DNA from: Escherichia phage vB_EcoD_Opt-719
DNA: 48,302 bases
Sequence record: OL539451.1
Direction: 5' to 3' (one strand)
The translations under genes and the position numbers were made by a program. The notes under the pieces are model-generated. The model was not told the DNA's origin and did not search any database. It saw only the letters and a program-made list of their open reading frames with translations. Positions 18,613 through 47,929 of the stretch are shown here, piece after piece (positions within the stretch are counted from its first letter, which is position 1; the number at the start of each line of letters is the position of its first letter).

Positions 18613-21600
18613 ATGGCCGATTTGCCAAAGATTTATGGAAGCAAGGGTGGTGGCAAGAAGCCACACACACCTGTGGAGCAAGAAGATAACCTGGTTTCAC
18701 TAAACAAGATTAAGGTGCTGCTGGCCGTTGCTGATGGTGAGGTTGATTCTAGCTTCTCACTTAAGGATGTTTACCTTGCTGACGTTCCAGTGCAGAACCA
18801 GGACAACTCATTCAACTATGAAGGTGTAACCGCTGAGTTTCGCCCAGGCACTCAATCTCAAGATTACATCGCCGGGCTAGACGGTGAGGCATCAGAGATT
18901 CAGGTTAGTCGTGAGATTAACAATGATACACCTTACATCATCGCAGTTAACAACAGTCAGCTTTCAGCAATCCGAGTCAAGCTGTTCTGGCCTCGACTCG
19001 TTAAGCAAGAAGAGAATGGAGATTTAAATGGCACAACATGTGAATATGCAATCGATTTATCAGTTAATGGCTCAGCGTACACTGAATATACCAGAGGCGT
19101 GGCTAACGGTAAAACTACAACAGGTTACGACCGCAGTATCAGGGTTAACTTACCAGCCGAGTTTAGCAGCGCTCTTGTTCGTATTAGGAAGTTAACGCCA
19201 GACTCAACAAGCAGCACACTGGTTAACGGAATGCAGATTACAACCTATCAGGAAGTAATCGACGCTAAGTTCCGCTACCCTCTTACAGCGCTTGTTTACG
19301 TTGAGTTCAGCTCCGACCTATTCCCCAATGGCATCCCAACGATAGCTATTAAGAAAAAGTGGAAGCTTATCCGCGTACCGACAAACTACAATCCAGAGAC
19401 AAGGACTTATAGCGGCACATGGGATGGTACCTTTAAGATGGCGTGGTCTGACAACCCGGCCTGGGTTTTATATGACCTTGTGGTTAGTCAGCGTTACGGA
19501 TTAGATCAGCGAGAACTTGGTGTAGAGATTGATAAATGGGGTCTGTATGAAGCTGCGCAATTCTGTGACCAGATGGTTCCTGATGGTAAGGGTGGAATGG
19601 AGCCGCGATATACTTGCAACGTTGTAATTCAGCAGAAGGTTGAAGCATACCAGCTTATTCGTGACATCTGTTCTATATTCCGCGGTTTAACCTTCTATGA
19701 TGGTGAGCAAATCGGGATTGTTGTAGACAGGCCGCGCCAGCCAAGTTACGTGTTCACCAATGATAACGTTGTTGATGGATTGTTTAACAGGACATTCTCT
19801 AGCGATAAGTCTCTTTACACGACTGCAAACGTTCAGTTTGATGACGTAGAGAATAACTATCAGCAAGATGTTGAACCAGTGTTCGACCTTGAAGCAACTC
19901 GCCGCTTTGGTTATAACCCTGTAGACCTGACCGCAATTGGATGCGTAAGGCGTAGTGAAGCTAACCGTCGAGGTCGCTGGTTGCTGAAAACAAACCTTCG
20001 AAGTGAAACGGTAACGTTCACAACTGGCCTCGAAGGGATGATTCCTATGATTGGTGATGTAATTGCTGTCAATGACCAGGCTTGGTCAAGCAACTACACA
20101 TTGAACCTTTCGGGTCGAATCGTTGAGGCTACTGGTCTGCAGGTTTTTGTTCCTTTCGCTATTGATGCGGACCCAGGCGACAGGATTTTAATCAACAAGC
20201 CCGATGGAAGCCCGGAGTACAGGACTATCGCTTCAGTATCTGCAGATAAGCTTACGCTTGAACTGAACACAGCATTCAGTTTCACGCCGCAGCCGGATAC
20301 GGTATTCGCAATCGATAAGCAGAATCTGGCGTTGCAGCAGTATGTGGTGACCGGGATTCAAAAAGCTAACACGGATGGAGAGGACTCATTCCAGTACAGC
20401 ATCACAGCTGTTCAGTATGATCCTAACAAGTACGATGAGATTGACTACGGAGTAAACATCGATGACAGGCCAACAAGCATCGTTGACCCTGACAGGATTT
20501 TGCCACCGCAGAACATCACCGTTACTAGCTACAGCAAGGTAGTGCAGGGCTTAAGCGTTGAGACGATGGTTATTGGTTACGACAAAGTGCAGTATGCGAA
20601 AACATACAACGTACAATGGCGTAAGAATAACGGAAACTGGATTAACGTTCCTGAGACGGCTAACACTGAAGTTGATATTGAAGGTATCTACGCTGGCATT
20701 TACGACGTCAGGGTTCGTGCTGTAACTGACCAAAAATCAGTATCGGCATGGTCAGAAATCACAACTGTTAGCCTCACTGGCAAAATTGGAGAACCATCTG
20801 CGCCGCCTGTAATTACGGCTTCTGATGATGAGGTTTTCGGAATTAGGGTTAAGTGGGGCTTCCCTACTGACTCAGCGGATACTGCGTACACCGAGCTTCA
20901 GCAGGTTCCTGATAATGGTGACGGTACATACAATCCAGAGAATGCATCACTGCTTACCCTGGTTCCTTATCCTCAGTACGAATACTGGCACACAACTTTA
21001 CCAGCAGGTAACGTGAGGTGGTACAGGGCGAGGATTATTGACAGGATAGGTAACGTATCTCCATGGACTGATTTTGTCAGGGGTATGGCATCTGATGATG
21101 TAAGTGCAATCATTGGCGACATCAAGGTTGATATCGAAAACTCTGATGGTTACAAGTATCTTCTCCAGAACGCCATTGATGCAAATACTGACATCCAGAA
21201 CCAGGCCGAAGCAATAATTGAGAACGCATTAGCAAACGATACTGACGTGCGCGTTATGAAGCGCGAGAATGGAGCAAGGAAGGCTGAATATCGCCAGGCT
21301 GTTAGTTTGATTGCTGATGAAACTCAGGCGCGTGTAAATGCTCTCACAGAACTTAAAGCGCAGATTGATGATGAGATTGTTGGTCAGATTACGACAATTG
21401 AAACTGCTTTAGCTACAGAGACCGAGGCAAGGGCTACTGCTGATACCGCTCTAAGCGCAAGGCTTGGTGATAACGAGGCGGCTTTGAATCAGAAGCTTGA
21501 CTCTTACGCCACGGTCGAAGGCGTTGGTGTTCAGTACGGCGTTAAGCTAGGTCTGAAGTACAATGGAGTTGAGTATGGCGCTGGCATGAGCATGGAGTTA

Positions 21601-22016: not shown

Positions 22017-22325
22017 ATGGCTGAGTATGGGATTGCTACATATGATGCAAATGGTAATTACAATAACTATGGGATTAAGCCAGTTACGGTTGTTGGCTTT
22101 GATTTCCTTTCCGCTGGCAATAATTCTTACTCGTTTTCTTACTCAATACCAGAAGGCACAAAGGTTGGATTCACTATTAGTCTGGATGATGGGGCGATAT
22201 CTGGACCAGCAAGGAGAATAGTGGCAAGTGGGAACACAATAACGATAACACCAACATCAACACCAGGACCTGGTGTTTACCCATCATCAAATTGCTACCT
22301 CATAGCTTATCTGGAGAATCAATAA
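22017..22325 (+). CDS. hypothetical tail-associated protein (102 aa)
   Basis: AGGAGG RBS; N-terminus MAEYGIATYDANGNY paralogous to next gene; follows J-like gene. Confidence 0.45.
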   Translation: MAEYGIATYDANGNYNNYGIKPVTVVGFDFLSAGNNSYSFSYSIPEGTKVGFTISLDDGAISGPARRIVASGNTITITPTSTPGPGVYPSSNCYLIAYLENQ

Positions 22326-23017
22326 TGGCTGATTACGGAGCTTTTATAGATGTAAATGGAAATCCATTCATAACGCCACTATCAACACCATTCGCACTTT
22401 ACTCAAAAGGAACAATCGCATCAGGTAATGTTAACAACACCCAGTATGCTGATAGATATGTTGACATTCCTCTCAATGTTCCAGTGATAGCTTTTTGCAA
22501 AACGACAAACACAAACAATGGTACAGCTTTGTCAGCATTCACATTTAGGGAGGGATCCAACATTGGAAAGATCTACTTTCAGGGTGTTAATCCAGCAAAT
22601 CAGGCGTTTGTTATGACGTACTACATATTTGCGATATTCCCACAGACTCTACCTGATTGGGGTATGGCTATATGGGATGCGCAGGGTAAATTGATACTTA
22701 CAAATGAAACAAAGGTTCTTAGCGACCTAGCAACAATTGGCACGCCAGGTTATCAATCTGGTGGTTTAAATATAGACGTAACATTGCAAGGAAGTTGGGC
22801 CGTGGTTCCAACAACCCTGGGGAATAGTCAGATACAAATAGGAACGCTACCAACTGGTCAGCCAGTTATAACAAATGCGACAGCTGGAACATCCTGCAGG
22901 TACAACGGAGTGCAGACAAGAATAAACGCGCAGTCAACACGTGGCTCTGGAAATGTGTTAAGCACAACAAATAACGGAAATGTAATAACAGCAATTAACA
23001 CATCAGCATACGACTAA
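22325..23017 (+). CDS. hypothetical tail-associated protein (230 aa), paralog of 22017..22325
   Basis: N-terminus MADYGAFIDVNGNPF; ATG overlaps upstream TAA (TAATG). Confidence 0.45.
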   Translation: MADYGAFIDVNGNPFITPLSTPFALYSKGTIASGNVNNTQYADRYVDIPLNVPVIAFCKTTNTNNGTALSAFTFREGSNIGKIYFQGVNPANQAFVMTYYIFAIFPQTLPDWGMAIWDAQGKLILTNETKVLSDLATIGTPGYQSGGLNIDVTLQGSWAVVPTTLGNSQIQIGTLPTGQPVITNATAGTSCRYNGVQTRINAQSTRGSGNVLSTTNNGNVITAINTSAYD

Positions 23018-23040
23018 GCCCCTTTCGGGGCTTTTTCTTT
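23017..23040. terminator. bidirectional rho-independent terminator
   Basis: hairpin AGCCCC-TTTC-GGGGCT with T-run; separates convergent plus structural genes and minus lipoprotein gene. Confidence 0.7.
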
Positions 23041-23041
23041 A

Positions 23042-23263
23042 TCAACCTCCACAATCGTGGTCTTTAAAATTCCGCTCAGAGACGTACTGAAACGAGAATG
23101 GATATCCGGCCCTAAGTAAAAACTCCTCACCGCGCTTCTGCGTGCCAAAAACATAAACAGAGTAACTCATTCCGCTTGACTCATAAATCGCCGTACAAGT
23201 GCGCTCCGGCATCGTAGAGCACCCGCCTAACGTCATTGCTGCGATAACGATTAATTTTTTCAT
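23042..23263 (-). CDS. small lipoprotein, candidate Cor-like superinfection-exclusion factor
   Basis: 73 aa from ATG 23263 (track GTG 23272); signal peptide MKKLIVIAAMTLGGC with lipobox LGGC; AAGGTG RBS; small lipoprotein next to tail genes. Confidence 0.45.
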   Translation of the reverse strand: MKKLIVIAAMTLGGCSTMPERTCTAIYESSGMSYSVYVFGTQKRGEEFLLRAGYPFSFQYVSERNFKDHDCGG

Positions 23264-23273
23264 CTCATTCACC

Positions 23274-23378
23274 TTAGAAACCGTTAAAGTTTGAAGCCAG
23301 CAGCAGAACCCAAACGAAGAAGCTGGTAGTTGCTACGCCGAAGATTGCAGAGATTAAGTTAGTGGTTAAGTTAGTCAT
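23274..23378 (-). CDS. hypothetical small membrane peptide (34 aa)
   Basis: MTNLTTNLISAIFGVATTSFFVWVLLLASNFNGF; AAGGA RBS; stop abuts lipoprotein start; same minus-strand operon. Confidence 0.3.
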   Translation of the reverse strand: MTNLTTNLISAIFGVATTSFFVWVLLLASNFNGF

Positions 23379-23444
23379 TTTGTATTCCTTAGTAAGTATG
23401 TTTCGTTTCGATGGAGTAACTATAGCAAAGGCTTCAGCGGTAGT

Positions 23445-23465
23445 CTTTAGCAAATCGTGCTATTT
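23445..23465 (-). promoter_or_regulatory. promoter-cassette motif copy (minus orientation)
   Basis: reverse complement AAATAGCACGATTTGCTAAAG followed on minus strand by TATAGT and CATCGAAACGAAAC leader toward the lipoprotein operon. Confidence 0.45.
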
Positions 23466-23820
23466 GATATACGCGTAACCGATGTAACTCGATGTATACA
23501 ATCTCATCCGCGGAAAATTGTATACGCTTTTTTACGCGCAGATACGCATTAGTTACATTTATAAATCCTTATATAATAAGGTTTTAGAGTAGTATTATTA
23601 TTATATATATTACTATGTATATCTTGTAACTACTCTCTATAGCTATGTTGGTATGTTTTTCTAAAAGACTATGTTTGATTTCCTGTTAAGGAGGAAATGC
23701 ATATAGATATAGATAGGGTGCAAAATTGGTGGATACATTGGTTACAAGAGTTACATTCAGCATCCATGCGGCCTAGAGACTAGCAAGGCGTATTTAGGTG
23801 CGTTTTACACCGATATACAA

Positions 23821-23840
23821 AATAGCACGATTAATCAAAA
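23821..23840 (+). promoter_or_regulatory. promoter-cassette motif variant
   Basis: AATAGCACGATTAATCAAAA with GGGTATAGTG ~20 bp downstream; upstream of Rha-like gene. Confidence 0.4.
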
Positions 23841-23928
23841 CGGCTGCTTCTTGATTGGGTATAGTGCACTCATCGGCAGCAATGGTGCTGCGTCTATCTA
23901 CCAAAAAATGGTAGATACAAATGAAATA

Positions 23929-23947
23929 GCTCCTCAACTTGAGGAGC
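23929..23947 (+). promoter_or_regulatory. perfect 19-bp palindrome GCTCCTCAAcTTGAGGAGC (operator or hairpin)
   Basis: 9-bp arms around one central base, ~20 bp upstream of Rha-like gene ATG; second inverted repeat ATCTACC-N7-GGTAGAT at 23896-23916. Confidence 0.4.
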
Positions 23948-23966
23948 AAGGATAAGAGAGAAGATA

Positions 23967-24593
23967 ATGAACTTAATCAATACCAAGAAAGAAATGACCA
24001 TGACGACAACTGAGATTGCTAAGATTGTTGGTCAGCGACACGATAACTTAATGAATGATGTTAAATCAATGTACCTTGAGTTGTATGGTGAAAATCATTC
24101 TCCTGAGATTCAGGAGATTAAAATTCACAACAACAGAAGCCAAAAAATTGCAATTCTTGATAAAAAACACACACTATGCCTTGCTGCAAAGTACAGCGCA
24201 AAGGTTAGAATGAACATGATCGAGAAGATTGAGAGCCTTGAGCAGGAAAACAAATTACTGAAAGAGCATATGGCTAAGATGGTTTCAATTGACGAGATCA
24301 AAGTTTATAAGATAGAAGCTGCGTCAGCAAAAGCTGCACAGCACAGAGCTGAAGATAACTATTACGCAATTGAGAAGTTCATGTTTAAGAACATGGATAA
24401 GTGCGGAAATCCTGCAGAACTTGATGAGCAATACTTCGATGTTAAATTCGAGTCAAATCGTTACCATGACTCTCAAGAGGTTGTTTACAAGTACCAGGCC
24501 CAGCTTGAGGTTGCTTGCGAGAAGTTAAAGGCCAAAGATGAGCTGATTGCTAATCTGGTAGACAAGAATAGCGAGATTCTTAAGTTGAAATGA
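23967..24593 (+). CDS. Rha-family-like phage regulatory protein
   Basis: N-terminal TTEIAKIVGQRHDNLMNDV resembles Rha-domain signature; coiled-coil-like C-terminal half. Confidence 0.5.
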   Translation: MNLINTKKEMTMTTTEIAKIVGQRHDNLMNDVKSMYLELYGENHSPEIQEIKIHNNRSQKIAILDKKHTLCLAAKYSAKVRMNMIEKIESLEQENKLLKEHMAKMVSIDEIKVYKIEAASAKAAQHRAEDNYYAIEKFMFKNMDKCGNPAELDEQYFDVKFESNRYHDSQEVVYKYQAQLEVACEKLKAKDELIANLVDKNSEILKLK

Positions 24594-24666
24594 TAGGCAA
24601 AACCAATTGGATAAACTTATCCACGGATGGCATAGTTAAATCACACAAACAAAGAGAGATATAGAA

Positions 24667-24861
24667 ATGGCATACTTCATTATTCAAGAGCGAAACAATC
24701 CGATTTTCGGCACGGTATACTACTGCGAGGATGGTTCCGGATACTGCGACCACAAAGCTGACGCCAAGAGATTCGATACTAAAGCTGAGGCAATGGAATG
24801 GGGCAGCATTAACGATGAGGAGCTGGGTGGAATTGTTAAGGTGATTAAGGTTAAGGAGTAA
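24667..24861 (+). CDS. hypothetical protein (64 aa)
   Basis: GAGAGA RBS; compact ORF between Rha-like and exonuclease genes. Confidence 0.4.
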   Translation: MAYFIIQERNNPIFGTVYYCEDGSGYCDHKADAKRFDTKAEAMEWGSINDEELGGIVKVIKVKE

Positions 24862-24864
24862 TTC

Positions 24865-25824
24865 ATGAGCTTCAAGGTTTACACTAACGATGAGTTAACC
24901 AACGAAGCCTACCATGAGGAGTCTGACCATGTGTCTGGCTCTGGTCTGGCTCACATCTTCTCAACTTGCCCAGCCGCATACAAATACGCTGAGCATGATG
25001 ATAGCAGTAAAGCGTTAAAGTTCGGTACATTGGCTCACACGATGGTTTTGGAGAGCTCTGTATTTGATGCGACATACTATCGTCAGCCAGCGCAGGAAGA
25101 GTTTGAAGACCTGATTACCAGTAAGGCTGCATTAGCAGCAAGACTGAAAGCGATGGGAATTGCTGGAACTTCTGGAAAGGATTACCCTGAATTAATGGAG
25201 ATACTGGCACTGACTGGTGAATCACTCAACGTATGGTGGGATATCCAGCGCTCTAGCGAGATTAAAGCAGAAGGCCGCGAGATTGTATCAGCTAAGGACT
25301 TTGACACCGTACAGGCGATGCGAGAGGTTTTGTGTGGAATTCCTGCTTACAATGCAATAGTTAACAGTGAAACCGCTCAGCGTGAACTATCAATTTTCGG
25401 TGAGATTAACGATTGTGGAGTGAAGGTAAGACTGGACCATGTTGATGTAGTTGGTGATGTTGTTTATATCCGAGATTACAAAACAACTAGCGACGCTTCT
25501 CCGTCAGGTTTCGGTCGCCTCGCCTTTAAGCATGGTTACTTGTTAAAGATGGCACTTCAACATGACTTATTTGTGCGAGCCTTTAATGAAAAGAGGCGAG
25601 TTGTTGTTCAGCTATTGGCGCAGGAAAAAAAGAGCCCGTACCTACCAATGTGCTACACGATAACAAAAGAACAGTTAAGGGTTGGTAGGTTGCAATACAT
25701 GAGTGCGCTTTCTACATACAAGCATTGTAAGAAGCTTGATATCTGGCCTGGGTATGGGTTCGGTGAAACAGAGATGGAATTGCAGATACCTGAATATGAG
25801 ATGAAGAAATATGAATTGGCATGA
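24865..25824 (+). CDS. putative PD-(D/E)XK recombination exonuclease
   Basis: 319 aa; DHVDVVGDVVYIRDYKTT (D...DxK-like) and downstream QHDLF motif; adjacent to Erf-like and SSB genes. Confidence 0.5.
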   Translation: MSFKVYTNDELTNEAYHEESDHVSGSGLAHIFSTCPAAYKYAEHDDSSKALKFGTLAHTMVLESSVFDATYYRQPAQEEFEDLITSKAALAARLKAMGIAGTSGKDYPELMEILALTGESLNVWWDIQRSSEIKAEGREIVSAKDFDTVQAMREVLCGIPAYNAIVNSETAQRELSIFGEINDCGVKVRLDHVDVVGDVVYIRDYKTTSDASPSGFGRLAFKHGYLLKMALQHDLFVRAFNEKRRVVVQLLAQEKKSPYLPMCYTITKEQLRVGRLQYMSALSTYKHCKKLDIWPGYGFGETEMELQIPEYEMKKYELA

Positions 25825-26266
25825 TATTTTTGAGTATATAGATGGATGCATAATATGGCGTGCTAGTGGTAATGTTGCTGGTTACAAACGAAAGGATGGT
25901 TATGTGATTGTGACAATAAATGGTAAGAAAATACTAGCGCATCGGATAATATACGAAATGAATAACGGAGATATAGAGCCAGGTATGCAAATTGACCATA
26001 TTGACCACAATCCATCAAACAACAGGATTGAAAACCTTAGGGTGGTTAACCACCAGGAGAACCAATCCAATAAGTCAAAGCAGTCAAATAACACTTCAGG
26101 GGTTACTGGCGTTTGGCTACATAAGAAATCTGGAAGGTTTGTAGCTGAAATAATGGTTGAAAAGAAGAAGATACATATAGGCTACTTTGATGACAAGCTG
26201 AATGCGGCAAAGGCTAGAAAGGATGCTGAAATTAAGTTTGGGTTTCATAAAAATCATGGAAAATAG
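25811..26266 (+). CDS. HNH homing endonuclease with AP2-like DNA-binding domain
   Basis: HNH motif DHIDHNPSNNRIENLRVVNHQEN; C-terminal GVTGVW...GRFVAEI...IHIGYF AP2-like segment; inserted between exonuclease and Erf-like genes. Confidence 0.8.
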   Translation: MNWHDIFEYIDGCIIWRASGNVAGYKRKDGYVIVTINGKKILAHRIIYEMNNGDIEPGMQIDHIDHNPSNNRIENLRVVNHQENQSNKSKQSNNTSGVTGVWLHKKSGRFVAEIMVEKKKIHIGYFDDKLNAAKARKDAEIKFGFHKNHGK

Positions 26267-30180: not shown

Positions 30181-31128
30181 TTATGAATGCTTATCTATCA
30201 GATCTTGCGGGTTATATAACTTTCGCTCAAGTCCCATTTTGAAGTTCCCACCGTTTGGAACTACAACTTTTAGGCCTCTATCATCAGCAACGTAAAGTGA
30301 TTCATTGTCATCAGGGAGGCAGGCTACCCGTAATTCGCGTTCACCTCCGAGATAACGATACGCCACTATTTCAAGATTTTCTGGCGTGAAAGTAACCCAA
30401 ACCTCCTGATTGGTTGCCACCTTAACACGATAACCATCAATCAGATCGCTTGTCATATATATAGCAGCATCAGGCTGGCCGCTTCCTAGCTTAACAACAG
30501 AGCCACGCGAATAATCACGCGCCAGAAATGTGTACTCACCATTATCATAAGCAAACATGACGTTACACATTTCATCATCAATACCGTCAGCGTGAACCAT
30601 GTGGCATGGCAATGCATGTATTAGCTCTTCAGAGCCATCATGGCGCAATTTAACACCAACGTCATAAGAATCTTCAGTTAGGCACTCATACACGCTTAAA
30701 TCGGTGTTCTCGCGCTTTTCCGTACGCTCCATTACTGCTACACACGATTCATGATCAGCCATCTTACCTAATCCTTTTTCAGGTACGCGTGACGCCCTGC
30801 GATAAGCCCTTGCCTTGTAATCCTGCGGAACTTTACCAAGGAATCGACCGAGAATGTTAATAACCTCACTATAAGGTTCTCCAGTCAACTTCATCATCCA
30901 GCCAACACCAGAGTCGTTACCGCATTGGTTACAGATGGCGCCACCGTCACCAGGGGAGTTAATATTGTCAGTCCAGCGGAAGCGGTCTTTTCCCGAGCAG
31001 TGAGGGCATGGGCCGTGCTTTTTGCTAAAGTATGAATCATTAAGCCCGCATATAGATTGCAGCGCCTCCCTCCAGAGGCCTTTCATGTACGGAAGAACCT
31101 CTTCTTTCTGGTAACTTATCTCGCTCAC
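30181..31128 (-). CDS. putative DNA primase (zinc-ribbon type)
   Basis: N-terminal CPHCSGKDRFRW...CNQCGN zinc-ribbon; acidic DxD-containing C-terminal half; next to helicase gene; GTG start. Confidence 0.4.
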   Translation of the reverse strand: MSEISYQKEEVLPYMKGLWREALQSICGLNDSYFSKKHGPCPHCSGKDRFRWTDNINSPGDGGAICNQCGNDSGVGWMMKLTGEPYSEVINILGRFLGKVPQDYKARAYRRASRVPEKGLGKMADHESCVAVMERTEKRENTDLSVYECLTEDSYDVGVKLRHDGSEELIHALPCHMVHADGIDDEMCNVMFAYDNGEYTFLARDYSRGSVVKLGSGQPDAAIYMTSDLIDGYRVKVATNQEVWVTFTPENLEIVAYRYLGGERELRVACLPDDNESLYVADDRGLKVVVPNGGNFKMGLERKLYNPQDLIDKHS

Positions 31129-31180: not shown

Positions 31181-31663
31181 TTACTCTTTAGCTTTTCGTG
31201 CTGCTTCATTAGCTGCTTTAATTTTACGCCAAGAGCGACACTCTGGTTTGGTAGCTAACTCAGCATCAGTAACCACGCGCAGCATGTGACGCTTCTTGCA
31301 GCGCAGAGTAAGTGGCTTGCCGTTACCATCAAATTGAAGGTCTGGACGGCAGAATGTAGCGCGGAACCCTTCGCCAGTTCGCTTGTATCGATTGTGAGCA
31401 AGCTGGGCGCCACGTGCCGACATCATGCCGCGATTAAACCACTCCTCAACAGCCTGTCGAGTAACCTTTAATTGCTTCGCCATATTAGCCTTGCTGCCGT
31501 AGAAGTCTAAAACAATCTCAAGCCTCGCCCTTAAACCCGCTCTTACTTCATCCTTTAACACATAGTAACCTGACGGTCGTTTGCGAGGTTTTTTGTCTTC
31601 TGTTCGTATTGTTCCGTTATTACCGTTAAGGGTACGCTTATCAATTTCACACACTTTTATCAC
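31181..31663 (-). CDS. putative HTH DNA-binding protein
   Basis: 160 aa; helix-turn-helix-like segment SKANMAKQLKVTRQAVEEWFNRG; basic N- and C-termini; divergent from helicase gene. Confidence 0.4.
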   Translation of the reverse strand: MIKVCEIDKRTLNGNNGTIRTEDKKPRKRPSGYYVLKDEVRAGLRARLEIVLDFYGSKANMAKQLKVTRQAVEEWFNRGMMSARGAQLAHNRYKRTGEGFRATFCRPDLQFDGNGKPLTLRCKKRHMLRVVTDAELATKPECRSWRKIKAANEAARKAKE

Positions 31664-38407: not shown

Positions 38408-38793
38408 TTATTGCAACTGTATTACTGACTGGTTGCTCTGGCCTATCGGCTATTTCTGATTTTTTACCAGCAAAGGATGGCGTCGAGGCAACAGCGCAGG
38501 TGGGTGAATCTAACCAGAAAACAGGGGTTGGGCTATCAAATCAGACAGACAAATCTAGCTCTATAGAAAGCGATATGCGCAACTCAACTAACAGAGACGT
38601 GGACTCATCAAGCCAGAAAAAGACCGCCGCTACTGGCCTATCAGCTAACACAATAACGGCTGAAAAGATTGAAATTCATAGTACTGAAAACTCAGGGGTA
38701 GATTCATTAGTCTGGGGTATTCTTGCCGGGCTAGTTTCTTGTTTGTTAACTTACTTCACTTTAAGATTTGCAGGAAACAAAAAAGGAGCCTAA
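38389..38793 (+). CDS. unimolecular spanin-like protein (lipoprotein with C-terminal TM)
   Basis: N-terminal lipobox LLTGC and C-terminal TM helix LVWGILAGLVSCLLTYFTL; last gene of lysis cassette. Confidence 0.65.
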   Translation: MRLGIVIIATVLLTGCSGLSAISDFLPAKDGVEATAQVGESNQKTGVGLSNQTDKSSSIESDMRNSTNRDVDSSSQKKTAATGLSANTITAEKIEIHSTENSGVDSLVWGILAGLVSCLLTYFTLRFAGNKKGA

Positions 38794-38806
38794 TGGCTCC
38801 TTTCTC
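38778..38806. terminator. bidirectional rho-independent terminator
   Basis: hairpin AGGAGCC-TAAT-GGCTCCT flanked by A-run and T-run; between convergent lysis genes and minus-strand block. Confidence 0.7.
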
Positions 38807-39437: not shown

Positions 39438-41021
39438 TCACCCCAGCAGTCGTGGATTAATGTAAACCTTATCACCAATCAGGCAGGTGTAGTTTTTCTC
39501 ATCAAGCATCGGAAGTAAATGGTCTTTAATCTTAGCCATTACGCCAGCCTGAGCCTCAAACGGTCTAACCTTACGTGCCGCTTCATAGAGTGATCGCAAC
39601 CCCACCACTCCTTTACTGTTCTTTCCTTGCTTAATAAGAATATCAATTAGCTTGTTCATCTCTGCATTATCACCAGCGTGACCAGCAGCATTAGCGGAAG
39701 ACAAGTAAGTCTTACTCAGTTCTTCAAACATAAGAAGAGCTTCTTGCATCGTTTCAAGCCCAATCTCCCTGGACTTCTGCGGACTCCCTCCGTTTGGATT
39801 AAACCAGTTACGGATAGTGTGAAGAACTGCCGCTATCCTGATTACCTGCTTATCCATTTTACCTAACGCTCCGCGCAACATTGTGTGCGAGTACTTACCG
39901 CCATCTGCAAGGTGCGGCTCCATTTCCTGACGAGCACGGTTGAGGTGCTTCATTGCTGAATTACTGACAGTTAGTTTTACATCTTGCTCGCTCATTATTT
40001 CATGAACAAGACGAAAGTAATCTGCCTTTAATCCACCATCAATTGGTTTATATGTTGACTCGCCCTCATCATCAACAAACACACGCTCACCAAGGAATGA
40101 CTTCTCGCGCACAAGAAGGAAACGCTCTGATACACCGATACCGCGAGCGCCAGCATTCATGATTGCGACGATTGTTTCATCCTGCGCAATTACAGAAATG
40201 CAACCCATAGCAATAAAGCTCATGTTGTTCTCTGCGTTCGCACGCGCGATAGATACGTTACCAGCATCCCAGGCCTTCAGAACAAGTTCGCTGTTAGTTT
40301 TCTTCGAGCCATCACCGTAAGTCATACCAAGAAGTGAGTTAACACTTGTCGCTTCATCAGAAATCACGGAGAAGTTGCCCTGGCGGTTGTTGATTCGCGC
40401 AAGACCTTCCGGGGTAGTATCAGATACCGGAAACACAATGTCGCACAGCTTTTCTAACTTCTCTTCCAACTCCTCTTTATCTTCGAATAATCCAGCCATC
40501 TCAGATGGTGACTTCTCTTGCTTCATTTCTTTTGCCAGGGCTGACAATTTAGCCATAATCTTCTTACGGTCACGCTTGCGTAATTCGTTCAATCGCTCAG
40601 TCTCAGCAATCATTGGCGCTAGTGCGAGTGAGTTAATAGCTGACTTACCAGTTGATGGAGGCTGACTGGTTACTACGTACAGCGCGGTAGGCTGCTGAGT
40701 TCCATGATACTCAACCGTAAAGCGACCAAGCATTGCTGCTGAAATACACCCAAGGAAGTGCATGTAAGCTGAAGACTCTGGGAACTGAACTGAGCGTGCG
40801 ATATTGCTTGATAATTTACCAACGACATCACAATCATTTCCTAGCGAGATGACCGGATATTTGTCACCAGTTGAATCAATTTCTACCGGAGCCTTCCAGA
40901 ATGATGCACTCTGTCGATAACCATTGGCATTAATAGCAACTCGCAATGGTGGTAAATTTTCAGCTGCCGCAACAGACATTACTTGTTCGACTGATAATTT
41001 ATCTTCGTTAAAATCAAACAT
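39438..41021 (-). CDS. P-loop NTPase with N- and C-terminal modules shared with mini-paralog 43328..43870
   Basis: 527 aa; deviant Walker A QPPSTGKS (aa ~120-127) and Walker B FSVISDEAT (aa ~218-224); N-terminal 45 aa and C-terminal ~75 aa ~60-65% identical to the 180-aa plus-strand protein. Confidence 0.55.
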   Translation of the reverse strand: MFDFNEDKLSVEQVMSVAAAENLPPLRVAINANGYRQSASFWKAPVEIDSTGDKYPVISLGNDCDVVGKLSSNIARSVQFPESSAYMHFLGCISAAMLGRFTVEYHGTQQPTALYVVTSQPPSTGKSAINSLALAPMIAETERLNELRKRDRKKIMAKLSALAKEMKQEKSPSEMAGLFEDKEELEEKLEKLCDIVFPVSDTTPEGLARINNRQGNFSVISDEATSVNSLLGMTYGDGSKKTNSELVLKAWDAGNVSIARANAENNMSFIAMGCISVIAQDETIVAIMNAGARGIGVSERFLLVREKSFLGERVFVDDEGESTYKPIDGGLKADYFRLVHEIMSEQDVKLTVSNSAMKHLNRARQEMEPHLADGGKYSHTMLRGALGKMDKQVIRIAAVLHTIRNWFNPNGGSPQKSREIGLETMQEALLMFEELSKTYLSSANAAGHAGDNAEMNKLIDILIKQGKNSKGVVGLRSLYEAARKVRPFEAQAGVMAKIKDHLLPMLDEKNYTCLIGDKVYINPRLLG

Positions 41022-42138: not shown

Positions 42139-42191
42139 CTGATATCTCCTCGTTGTCGATGTGATAACTATAACCAATCAGGGCTGAATGG

Positions 42192-42211
42192 TCATTAGCA
42201 AAAAGTGCTAT
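42192..42211 (-). promoter_or_regulatory. promoter-cassette motif copy (minus orientation)
   Basis: reverse complement AATAGCACTTTTTGCTAATG with TATAGT and CATCGACAACGAGGAG leader toward 41920..42138. Confidence 0.5.
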
Positions 42212-42214
42212 TCG

Positions 42215-42345
42215 TTCGATTTATGGATTGTTGCAGATATTGCAATGATTCACTTCACTATTGCATGTATAGCAATATTGCATCGATTGCAATGATTTTC
42301 TGGACTGTTGCGAAATTTAGCAATGATTGATGGATTGATGGAATG
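42215..42345. repeat. iteron-like array (GCAATGATT x3, ATTGCAAT palindromes, ATTGATGG x2); candidate origin/operator
   Basis: approx. coordinates; three direct GCAATGATT copies near 42241, 42288, 42319, two perfect ATTGCAAT palindromes and several ATTGCA/TAGCAAT half-sites in an ORF-free divergent region. Confidence 0.5.
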
Positions 42346-42509
42346 AAGGAGGGCGCATCAACTAGTTGGTTGGTTTTAGCTTACACGAGGAGCTTTCCTT
42401 TATATACGCGTTATGGCTTGTTCAACCGTGTGGAGAAATTGCCATATTTACGCCATCCACGCCAGTTTACGCGCTGGTTACAAAATAAATCCCTTATATA
42501 ACAACCTTT

Positions 42510-42540
42510 TAGATTTATTATTATTATTATTATTATATAT
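42510..42540. repeat. (TTA)n microsatellite in AT-rich spacer
   Basis: approx. coordinates; TTATTATTATTATTATTAT followed by ATATATG; candidate DNA-unwinding element next to iterons. Confidence 0.4.
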
Positions 42541-42812
42541 GTTATCCCGTAACCATGATTATCCAAGATATTGGTGATATTTTTTTGATATTGCGCGGCG
42601 CATAAAGATTTAGATAAAGAGATAGGGATGCAAGTGGGGTGGAGAAAATGGCTTAACAGACCATAACGGCAATAACAGCCTTGATATGACTAGCGTCAGC
42701 ATGTAACAATTTAGCATAACGTGCGATTACTGAGTTGAACGTGTAAATAATGCTTGCGACATTCACCCATCATGGTAAGATGCTCTCACACTAAACGAGA
42801 GGAGTAGTAAAA

Positions 42813-47554: not shown

Positions 47555-47746
47555 CTCAAATGTTTAATATGGTTAGTATTAAACACGTAGACGGCAATGA
47601 CCGTAACGCGCATCGCGGAGATGAAAGCCGATAGCCGGGCTGGATAAAGATACGAGGCAACTACCGCATCGCCAAAAGCAAAGTGTAAGTCGGACTTGCG
47701 GAGCATTGTGAAAGCTCGCCGGATTCCGTAACCGGCACCTATTCAA

Positions 47747-47822
47747 GTTCTGTTAGTGTAAGTGGACAGCACGAAGACCTCCTAAGTCTTAGGTACTGGT
47801 TCAAGTCCAGTGCGGAACGCCA
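47747..47822 (+). tRNA. tRNA-Arg (anticodon CCU)
   Basis: 76 nt cloverleaf by hand: 7-bp acceptor (GTTCTGT/GCGGAAC, two G-U), D-stem GTGT/GCAC with GG in loop, anticodon loop CUCCUAA, T-arm ACTGG-TTCAAGT-CCAGT, encoded CCA. Confidence 0.8.
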
Positions 47823-47827
47823 AATAT

Positions 47828-47929
47828 GCTCACGTTGCTAATGTTGGCCTAAGGGTGGAGCTTATACCTCCATAAAGCAATCACCAGATAAGTGATGTAA
47901 CGCAGGTTCGATTCCTGCCGTGAGCACCA
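47828..47929 (+). tRNA. atypical tRNA-like element (102 nt incl. CCA)
   Basis: perfect 7-bp acceptor pairing GCTCACG/CGTGAGC, T-arm GCAGG-TTCGATT-CCTGC, discriminator A plus CCA; two candidate anticodon stem-loops (CUUAUAC, CAGAUAA); D-region ~26 nt too long. Confidence 0.35.

Follow-up and report, generated by a model that had tools for sequence, protein, structure and literature searches.

The 48,302 nt sequence analysed here (the window) is the complete genome of the T1-like Escherichia phage vB_EcoD_Opt-719 (OL539451.1; Drexlerviridae, Rogunavirinae), in which a non-coding gap at positions 23379-23966 separates the leftward cor operon from the rightward operon comprising rha, exoVIII, erf and ssb. 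The Cor superinfection-exclusion lipoprotein (phrog_1119) is encoded on the minus strand to the left of the gap, and rha is followed on the other side by genes for a PDDEXK exonuclease, an HNH endonuclease, ERF and SSB; the first-pass annotation of this DNA had named a lipoprotein operon, a Rha-like gene and a recombination module as neighbours, and these assignments held. Three other members of the Rogunavirinae (Phleasolo, Sadiya and Opt-79) match the window at 100% over positions 22900-24700, and the 500 bp region to which the first-pass annotation had drawn attention (23466-23966) carries no annotation in their records. Sequence comparisons indicate that the gap is a three-part cis-acting control region, present in every T1-like phage (Drexlerviridae) examined. 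The element between its two outer promoter cassettes, termed core A, is considered here as a candidate replication origin.

The region had been described as poor in open reading frames (ORFs) and rich in AT tracts and palindromes, and each of the quoted sequence features was found where it had been placed, the AT-rich tracts being ATTATTATTATATATATTAC (23594-23613) and TATAGATATAGATAG (23701-23715). No ORF is longer than 51 aa, and the reading frames across the region are all broken by indels in relatives; the single ORF with a Shine-Dalgarno-like motif, starting at ATG 23696, encodes 28 aa here, 48 aa in phage AKS96 and five codons in Phagiculus. A coding role for the gap was rejected on the basis of these short frames and their disruption or lack of conservation in relatives.

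Core A, the components of which are listed in Table 1, retains 80-84% identity in the Braunvirinae (Rtp, JulesPiccard, TR1 and ECH1) and Nouzillyvirus and is never coding, most genes of the same phages having just 64-74% nucleotide identity. A hairpin, TAAATCCTTAT/ATAAGGTTTTA, and an inverted repeat, GTATACAAT/ATTGTATAC, were both rejected as structural elements, being unconserved in the Braunvirinae. No match to the core was found among plasmids and E. coli genomes, hence it appears to have no satellite or plasmid relative there, and scanning viral contigs with a degenerate core pattern returned mostly random loci, a specific pattern giving only 10. Whole-genome comparison with Rtp revealed a paralogous element, core B, approximately 19 kb from core A in the second large divergent gap, and an alignment of both copies from three phages shows them to have one skeleton and one orientation in common.

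Both cores have an unusual duplex stability. Nearest-neighbour calculations were made for genomes of five lineages (this phage, Rtp, T1, TLS and Klebsiella phage MezzoGao), and in all five the least stable 40, 60 and 100 bp segments genome-wide were cores A and B, which lie 4.5-6 standard deviations below the genome mean and well apart from the third-ranked segment; core B is either the first or second least stable. The gap is also the genome maximum for the hexamer GTTACA, of which it holds 4-5 per 300 bp, the mean being 0.17; the maximum falls in this gap in Rtp and T1 as well, and in T1 this is so despite a gap that does not align with that of this genome. The repeats that flank the AT-rich centre differ by lineage, being GTTACA/TTACGC in this phage and Rtp, TGTAACAG with ATTACGC in T1, TGTTCAC/GGAACA in TLS and GGTAAGAT/ATCTTACC in MezzoGao, the last present in at least 12 copies in core A and found in core B as well; despite these changes, the centre itself keeps a recognisable skeleton across the lineages. 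Nor does the core depend on a divergent gap: in TLS it persists after a tail gene, with no leftward genes, and in MezzoGao it lies between the primase gene and exoVIII, the recombination module being inverted. Also in MezzoGao (approximately 20500-20545), a hairpin immediately downstream of the primase gene is composed of two inverted core repeats, GGTAAGAT...GTCTTACC, followed by a T-run; judging from its sequence, this could double as a terminator and a binding site.

Table 1. Positions of the features of the gap, of its paralog and of the candidate trans-acting factors in the window
Feature	Position	Strand	Details
Leftward small gene	23274..23378	-	34 aa, one hydrophobic helix; first gene of cor operon; start ATG 23378
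Left promoter cassette	23403..23463	-	Direct repeat (DR) ATAGCACGATTTGCTAAAG 23445-23463; -35-like AAGACT 23442-23447; 17-nt spacer; -10 TATAGT 23419-23424; leader CATCGAAACGA 23403-23413; predicted transcription start site (TSS) ~23412
Core A	23466..23640		Non-coding; 175 bp between the two promoter cassettes
ACGCGT palindrome	23471-23476		Core A, leftmost
Left array, three minus-oriented sites	23472-23480; 23481-23489; 23491-23499	-	Core A; CGCGTAACC, GATGTAACT and GATGTATAC respectively
Central CCGCGG	23508-23513		Core A
Right array, four plus-oriented sites	23520; 23530; 23540; 23552	+	Core A; GTATAC, TTTTAC, AGATAC and GTTACA respectively, ~10-bp phased
TATATAAT	23569-23576		Core A
TTTAGA	23583-23588	+	Core A
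Candidate sigma-70 promoter TTTAGA-N17-TATATT	23583..23611	+	Promoter scan; matrix score 10.0; predicted TSS ~23618; inside AT tract
(TAT)n/TATATT tract	23592-23611		Core A
Inverted site TGTAAC	23625-23630	-	Core A
Rogunavirinae-specific block	23641..23800	+	Alignment of 9 Rogunavirinae; TATGTT repeats, TATAGATATAGATAG, freely variable 16-nt patch at ~23774-23789
Hairpin ATTTCCT-N7-AGGAAAT	23678-23698	+	Rogunavirinae-specific block; over Shine-Dalgarno-like AAGGAGG
Three tandem 9-mers	23731-23757	+	Rogunavirinae-specific block; GGATACATT/GGTTACAAG/AGTTACATT
Right promoter cassette, diverged	23822..23876	+	DR ATAGCACGATTAATCAAAA 23822-23840; free spacer; GATTGGG then -10 TATAGT 23860-23865; leader start CATCGG 23871-23876; predicted TSS ~23872
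Hairpin 1 (HP1)	23876-23891	+	Predicted rha 5' leader; GCAGCA-ATGG-TGCTGC
Hairpin 2 (HP2)	23895-23917	+	Predicted rha 5' leader; TATCTACCA-N5-TGGTAGATA
Hairpin 3 (HP3)	23929-23947	+	Predicted rha 5' leader; GCTCCTCAA-C-TTGAGGAGC
Rha-family gene	23967..24593	+	PF09669, E = 1.1e-8, above curated cutoff; phrog_8235, anti-repressor; first gene of rightward recombination operon
Cro-like helix-turn-helix (HTH) protein	31181..31663	-	T1 gp23 family; candidate binder of core repeats
DUF3987 helicase	39438..41021	-	Putative replicative helicase; PF13148, E = 5.5e-42
Core B	42400..42560 (approx.)		Paralog of core A; blastn 76.7% identity, E = 8e-9; second large divergent gap 42142-42812

The first-pass annotation had regarded the region as a regulatory hub or operator, and this was correct insofar as protein-binding-type repeats form a conserved array in the core. 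Its properties nevertheless favour an origin-type element over a classical Rha operator, given the existence of a second copy, the extreme minimum of duplex stability, the lineage-specific repeats and the persistence of the core in the non-divergent gaps of TLS and MezzoGao. Rha itself was rejected as the binder of the core, as the Braunvirinae keep the same core without having a Rha gene. A lambdoid Cro/CI operator region was likewise rejected, since the repeats are phased 6-9 bp units and not 17 bp palindromes, and the HTH gene is 7.5 kb away; the phage is virulent, and the full records of T1, Rtp, TLS and MezzoGao carry no annotated integrase or CI-type repressor.

A transcriptional role in the wider sense, as the main rival to an origin, deserves more consideration. 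Were the core purely such a hub, with no part in replication, one or more strong early sigma-70 promoters would lie in the AT tract and the phased repeats would be Cro-like HTH operators switching the early regions A and B on or off as infection passes from early to late, an explanation we regard as possible but on balance doubtful. The candidate promoter in core A is matched by one at the equivalent place in core B (42508-42536), which scores 9.4, and compensating indels hold the spacing between the two hexamers at 16-18 nt; a -10-like CTATATAAYA is present in the eight cores inspected from this phage, Rtp, T1 and TLS. The cores are also constantly oriented towards downstream operons encoding typical early functions, and strong phage promoters often have AT-rich DNA upstream. 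However, the match to sigma-70 promoters is only moderate, with scores of around 10 compared with 15 for the best in the genome, and the candidate is poorly conserved in TLS and MezzoGao; a genome scan with the sigma-70 matrix did not single out the core, giving moderate scores and many alternative registers in AT-rich DNA. The flanking operons, moreover, already have cassettes of their own, and Rtp additionally has a consensus-like ATGTCA-N17-TATAAT. The number of repeats seen in MezzoGao, which occur in both orientations and on both sides of the AT tract, exceeds what an operator would require, and the tract is the extreme stability minimum of every genome compared. By analogy with the origins of T7 and T4, which combine a promoter with an unwinding element, a hub and an origin are compatible and need not be exclusive readings of the core.

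Two proteins are candidates for acting on the core. The Cro-like HTH protein and the DUF3987 helicase are 89% and 91% identical, respectively, to their Rtp counterparts, compared with 46-64% for replication and recombination proteins. The HTH allele is found at 80% identity or above in 128 phage records, followed by a gap down to 65% or less; core A of the type in the window is present in 134 records, and the helicase, again at 80% or above, in 144, whereas only 17 records have the primase gene adjacent to the HTH gene (primase at 30181-31128) at that level. The distribution of the HTH allele, matching that of the core, would suit an operator as well as an origin, as would the Cro fold; the similar number of phages carrying the allele of the putative replicative helicase weighs against the hub. 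Within the HTH protein, lineages differ most in the block formed by the HTH helices, the recognition helix reading TRQAVEEW here and SIQVVQQW in MezzoGao. A structure model of the protein (predicted local distance difference test score 86) gave all-alpha Cro proteins as the best fold matches; on this modelled structure, a Cro-like fold would not separate a regulator from an initiator. Searches with the HTH protein found nothing in the PDB by sequence and nothing in NCBIfam, and the helicase too had no PDB sequence match. A DUF3987 protein has been shown to be the oligomeric 5'-3' helicase of a mobile-element replicon (PMC11724360). The gp23-family HTH protein is put forward as the best candidate for coating the core repeats.

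The architecture of the core, its two copies, its propensity to melt, the lineage-specific repeats, its persistence where transcription is not divergent and the parallel distribution of the HTH and helicase alleles together argue for an iteron-plus-unwinding origin with a phage-specific initiator. The anatomy can be read directly and from it we infer the function; we put the probability of a composite model in which the core acts as such an origin at roughly 0.5. A cluster of short motifs is present, in the form of the GTTACA maximum, the arrays phased at around 10 bp and the MezzoGao copies, in motifs that were defined post hoc, and an adjacent, easily unwound AT-rich element is present in five of five genomes. 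In the proposed mechanism, a lineage-specific phage protein, most plausibly the gp23-family HTH protein, would coat the core repeats; its binding would open the AT tract, possibly aided by transcription from the weak internal sigma-70 promoter, and the opened tract would allow the DUF3987 helicase and the zinc-ribbon primase to load. A more specific form of the proposal, which we hold somewhat more tentatively, is that cores A and B are the twin origins of T1-like phages, with lineage-specific iterons read through the variable recognition helix of a gp23-family HTH protein that is an initiator mis-annotated as a regulator and that recruits the DUF3987 helicase.

A number of observations weigh against an origin. 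There are no exact DnaA boxes in the cores or gaps, and boxes with up to one mismatch occur there at chance level; integration host factor (IHF) sites are not enriched in the cores or gaps; and GATC is absent from both gaps of this genome and absent or sparse in the cores of the others. The repeat motifs are short (6-9 bp) and degenerate and were defined after viewing the sequences, and GTTACA is unenriched in TLS, where another motif occurs, so the claim of lineage-specific repeats rests on a non-blind reading of five genomes. The sigma-70 candidate at the same place in both cores, with its preserved spacing and constant orientation, fits an early promoter equally well, and a Cro-type fold, such as that of the candidate binder, is what transcription regulators typically have. 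Clade structure together with slow evolution could by itself produce the matching record counts, and two origins would be unusual for a phage genome. On T1 transcription and the T1 origin, the literature provided nothing beyond the genome papers on TLS, SU57 and the AHP24 group, with no transcriptome or replication mapping. GC skew merely tracks the direction of transcription and is uninformative as to the origin.

With neither DnaA boxes nor GATC enriched, an oriC-type origin was rejected. Searches of this type in T1-like genomes had found no origin (PMC7718038, PMC11447400), and they would have failed because the core is not oriC-like. GATC is approximately five-fold rarer in this genome and Rtp (around one expected per 590 bp, both strands) than in T1, TLS and MezzoGao (around five per 500 bp), which suggests that lineages differ in their avoidance of Dam or restriction sites.

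Several characterised replicons resemble the proposed origin. Iterons next to AT-rich DNA, acted upon by an element-specific initiator, make up the origins of staphylococcal pathogenicity islands (ori and the Rep helicase), of lambda (ori and the O protein) and of iteron plasmids. As in the T1-like cores, short repeats in both orientations flank an AT-rich tract, and the repeat sequence changes between relatives whilst the architecture is kept; the similar numbers of phages sharing the core type, the DNA-binding-protein allele and the helicase allele are a further likeness to origins with element-specific initiators. Compared with the iterons of lambda and plasmids, however, the core repeats are shorter and more degenerate; furthermore, the core is neither inside nor directly beside an initiator gene in this genome, and has no DnaA boxes.

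Two distant cis-acting replication sites are found in SPP1, the oriL and oriR of which are bound by G38P, and in P4, where ori and crr are bound by the alpha primase-helicase. By analogy, cores A and B would be a comparable pair, being likewise two distant homologous non-coding copies with repeats beside AT-rich DNA. T1-like phages carry a zinc-ribbon primase of the P4 alpha type (PF08273), and the repeat found in TLS, TGTTCAC, is similar to the type I iteron of P4, TGTTCACC; unlike P4 alpha, though, the T1-like primase is without a C-terminal origin-binding domain. The origins of T7 and T4 consist of a promoter and a downstream AT-rich unwinding element, and the cores similarly have a promoter-like site within or next to the AT tract and, in all the cores inspected, a GT-rich non-template strand downstream, but T1-like phages are not known to have a phage RNA polymerase or a MotA-type system. 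That R-loops prime replication at the cores is pure speculation.

The surroundings of core B bear on whether the cores could be another kind of cis-acting DNA site, such as one related to packaging, one used in injection or partition, or a sink for host nucleoid proteins. Between the leftward cassette and core B, at 42225-42335, are TTGCA-type repeats (ATTGCAATGATT twice, with several ATTGCA and TTGCG variants), and similar repeats open the T1 genome record (positions 1-60) at its pac-proximal left end; those beside core B may be a pac or small-terminase recognition site. This adjacency lends something to a packaging role, as does the attraction of nucleoid proteins to AT-rich, probably curved DNA to that of a sink. 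Core A, on the other hand, has no TTGCA repeats and is separated by 19 kb from the terminase and pac region, a pac-type headful phage needs no packaging role at two sites, and repeats that are specific to each lineage argue against a constant host factor. Such roles for the cores are therefore highly improbable.

The promoter cassettes on either side of core A belong to a repeat family that has been noted previously. A 21 nt intergenic direct repeat, aaATAGCACnnnTTGnTAAAA, was reported in phage TLS, its occurrence in T1, Rtp and Rogue1 being noted as well (PMC11447400); the 2024 reannotation of TLS left its function open, as a stoperator, enhancer site or UP element (PMC11447400). With up to three mismatches, this consensus has 19 matches in the window, compared to 2.6 expected, and a long-range 19 nt inverted repeat (I1, pairing 23453-23471 with 23814-23832) proved to be two outward-facing copies of it. 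Alignment of the copies extends the element to a cassette consisting of ATAGCAC-N3-TTGCTAAA, a weak -35 (aaGACn), a 16-17 nt spacer, TATAGT or TATAAT, the leader CATCGAAACGA, a Shine-Dalgarno sequence and the start codon, with the -10-like hexamer in register 38-39 nt downstream in all aligned copies. There are 15 cassette sites in each of this genome, Rtp, T1 and TLS, at a median distance from the start codon of 75-80 nt across the four (76 nt in this genome). Divergent promoter cassettes had been reported at both ends of the region by the first-pass annotation, and these can be recognised as two members of this T1-like family of around 15 copies, ATAGCAC...TATAGT...CATCGAAACGA, the left one falling just outside the start coordinate that was given.

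The repeat in the left cassette points leftward, has one mismatch to the published consensus and is 85 nt from ATG 23378; the cassette is in register with 14 others and has a sigma-70 matrix score of 8.3. In an alignment of 15 phages its upstream element, -10 and leader are invariant and its 17 nt spacer varies freely, which is the conservation pattern of a promoter and supports reading the cassette as one. The right cassette has diverged further: its repeat, pointing rightward, has three mismatches and is 145 nt from ATG 23967, an atypical distance, and TAATCAAAA replaces TTGCTAAAG, whilst ATAGCACGA, GATTGGGTATAGT and the start of the leader are kept. It too is in register with the other cassettes, and is conserved with a variable spacer in the Rogunavirinae. 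Comparison of the sequences thus identifies the outer cassettes as putative promoters, the left driving the cor operon and the right driving the rha-exoVIII-erf-ssb operon. Both contain the same element as the TLS 21-mer, which has around 15 copies per genome and is oriented along transcription; whereas the 21-mer was described on its own in TLS, here it is the upstream part of a cassette of approximately 65 nt with a -10 TATAGT, a free spacer and a leader. Unlike the core repeats, the ATAGCAC repeat is universal across the lineages compared.

The left cassette also affects the boundary of the gap. The deposited start of the gene annotated as 'putative lipoprotein' is TTG 23453 (59 aa), which lies within the gene's own promoter cassette, whilst ATG 23378 is preceded, 7 nt upstream, by an AAGGA Shine-Dalgarno sequence at 23386-23390; the start of the gap was therefore corrected to 23379. 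The leader and Shine-Dalgarno sequence of this small gene are invariant in the 15 phages, and no family match was found for the 34 aa hydrophobic peptide it would encode.

To the right of the core, the rightward transcript opens with a leader of approximately 95 nt that contains three hairpins, two of which are palindromes singled out by the first-pass annotation. The inverted repeat ATCTACC-N7-GGTAGAT (23896-23916) is as reported and extends to the perfect 9 bp stem of HP2, TATCTACCA/TGGTAGATA, and the 19 bp palindrome GCTCCTCAAcTTGAGGAGC is HP3, the end of which is 19 nt before the rha start codon. Folded as RNA, positions 23868-23975 reach a minimum free energy of -35.4 kcal/mol (z = -5.7), which none of 200 shuffles equalled. 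There are seven hairpin hits with stems of at least 7 bp in the region, compared with 0.66 in dinucleotide shuffles (none of 500 reached seven), and just 2.6% of these shuffles contained a stem of at least 9 bp. Perfect hairpins with a stem of at least 9 bp and a loop of up to 10 nt number just five in the 48 kb genome. HP2 and HP3 are two of them; the other three are at 22259-22277, 38782-38803 and 47561-47585, that at 38782 (AAAGGAGCC...GGCTCCTTT) having the appearance of a terminator.

In Sd1, AHS24 and Phagiculus the sequence of HP3 differs but the hairpin persists, the Sd1 form of HP2 is weaker, and HP1 is kept in most relatives, being annotated as a terminator and followed by a T-run only in AKS96. 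No plus-strand T-run follows HP1, HP2 or HP3 in this genome, as would be required of a Rho-independent terminator, and HP3 is terminator-like on the minus strand only. Most likely, the leader hairpins stabilise the mRNA or modulate the translation of rha. A further palindrome, TCTCCTGAGATTCAGGAGA, is found within the rha coding sequence at 24099-24117, and other rha alleles have a palindrome of changed sequence at the same place (GCTCCTCAATTTGAGGAGC in phiEB49, CACTCCTCAAATTTGAGGAGTG in AKS96 and TCCCCAGATTTGGGGA in phiKP26). As that of phiEB49 is nearly identical to HP3, the latter may have been copied to its present place, or may mark a junction at which rha alleles recombined.

A small RNA locus had also been suggested for the region, and a small or structured regulatory transcript might run, for example, from 23618 to HP1, a length of approximately 275 nt. 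This segment is highly conserved within the Rogunavirinae, and the consensus fold of 23620-23760 has a z-score of -2.9 on the plus strand against -1.0 on the minus strand, with too little variation for covariation; HP1, with its T-run and annotation in AKS96, would supply the terminator. Yet HP1 has no T-run here or in most relatives, the block at 23641-23800 is absent from the Braunvirinae, T1 and TLS, and the local hairpins (23562-23586; GTATACAAT/ATTGTATAC) are broken without compensation in the Braunvirinae. When scored across subfamilies, the core folds equally well on both strands, implying inverted repeats at the DNA level, and Rfam returned nothing for the region either at the gathering threshold or at E<=1. 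The suggestion is consequently not upheld, a transcript of this kind being improbable, and a better account of the palindromes near rha is that they form hairpins in the rha 5' leader.

Scans for tRNAs and Rfam families likewise gave nothing in the region, their sole matches being two tRNA-like genes at 47.7-47.9 kb. These are a tRNA-Arg (CCT) followed by a second, 93 nt tRNA-like gene with an odd anticodon loop, together spanning 47747-47929; the second scores 42.7 bits with Rfam and is given no assignment by ARAGORN. Closer to the gap, between the tail genes and cor, a GC-rich hairpin, AAGCCCCTTTCGGGGCTT, at 23016-23033 has T-runs on either side and is likely to be a bidirectional terminator closing the short leftward operon. 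In the rightward operon, the HNH endonuclease gene (25811-26266) lies between the exonuclease gene, the end of which it overlaps, and erf; it looks like a mobile insertion, as AKS96 and Rtp lack it at this position.

Long familiar as contaminants in the laboratory and in industry, T1-like phages are also candidates for phage therapy. The analysis provides coordinates for three predicted TSSs, a promoter cassette, two candidate origins and a candidate initiator. If the proposal is correct, this would be the first assignment of an origin and an initiator in the Drexlerviridae and would separate the role of the core from that of the universal ATAGCAC promoter repeat, and the recognition helix of the candidate initiator should co-vary with the repeats. 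It would allow the rational engineering of T1-like phages, as minimal replicons or for controlled expression, and would mean that a single phage family swaps the specificity of iteron and initiator yet keeps the unwinding element.

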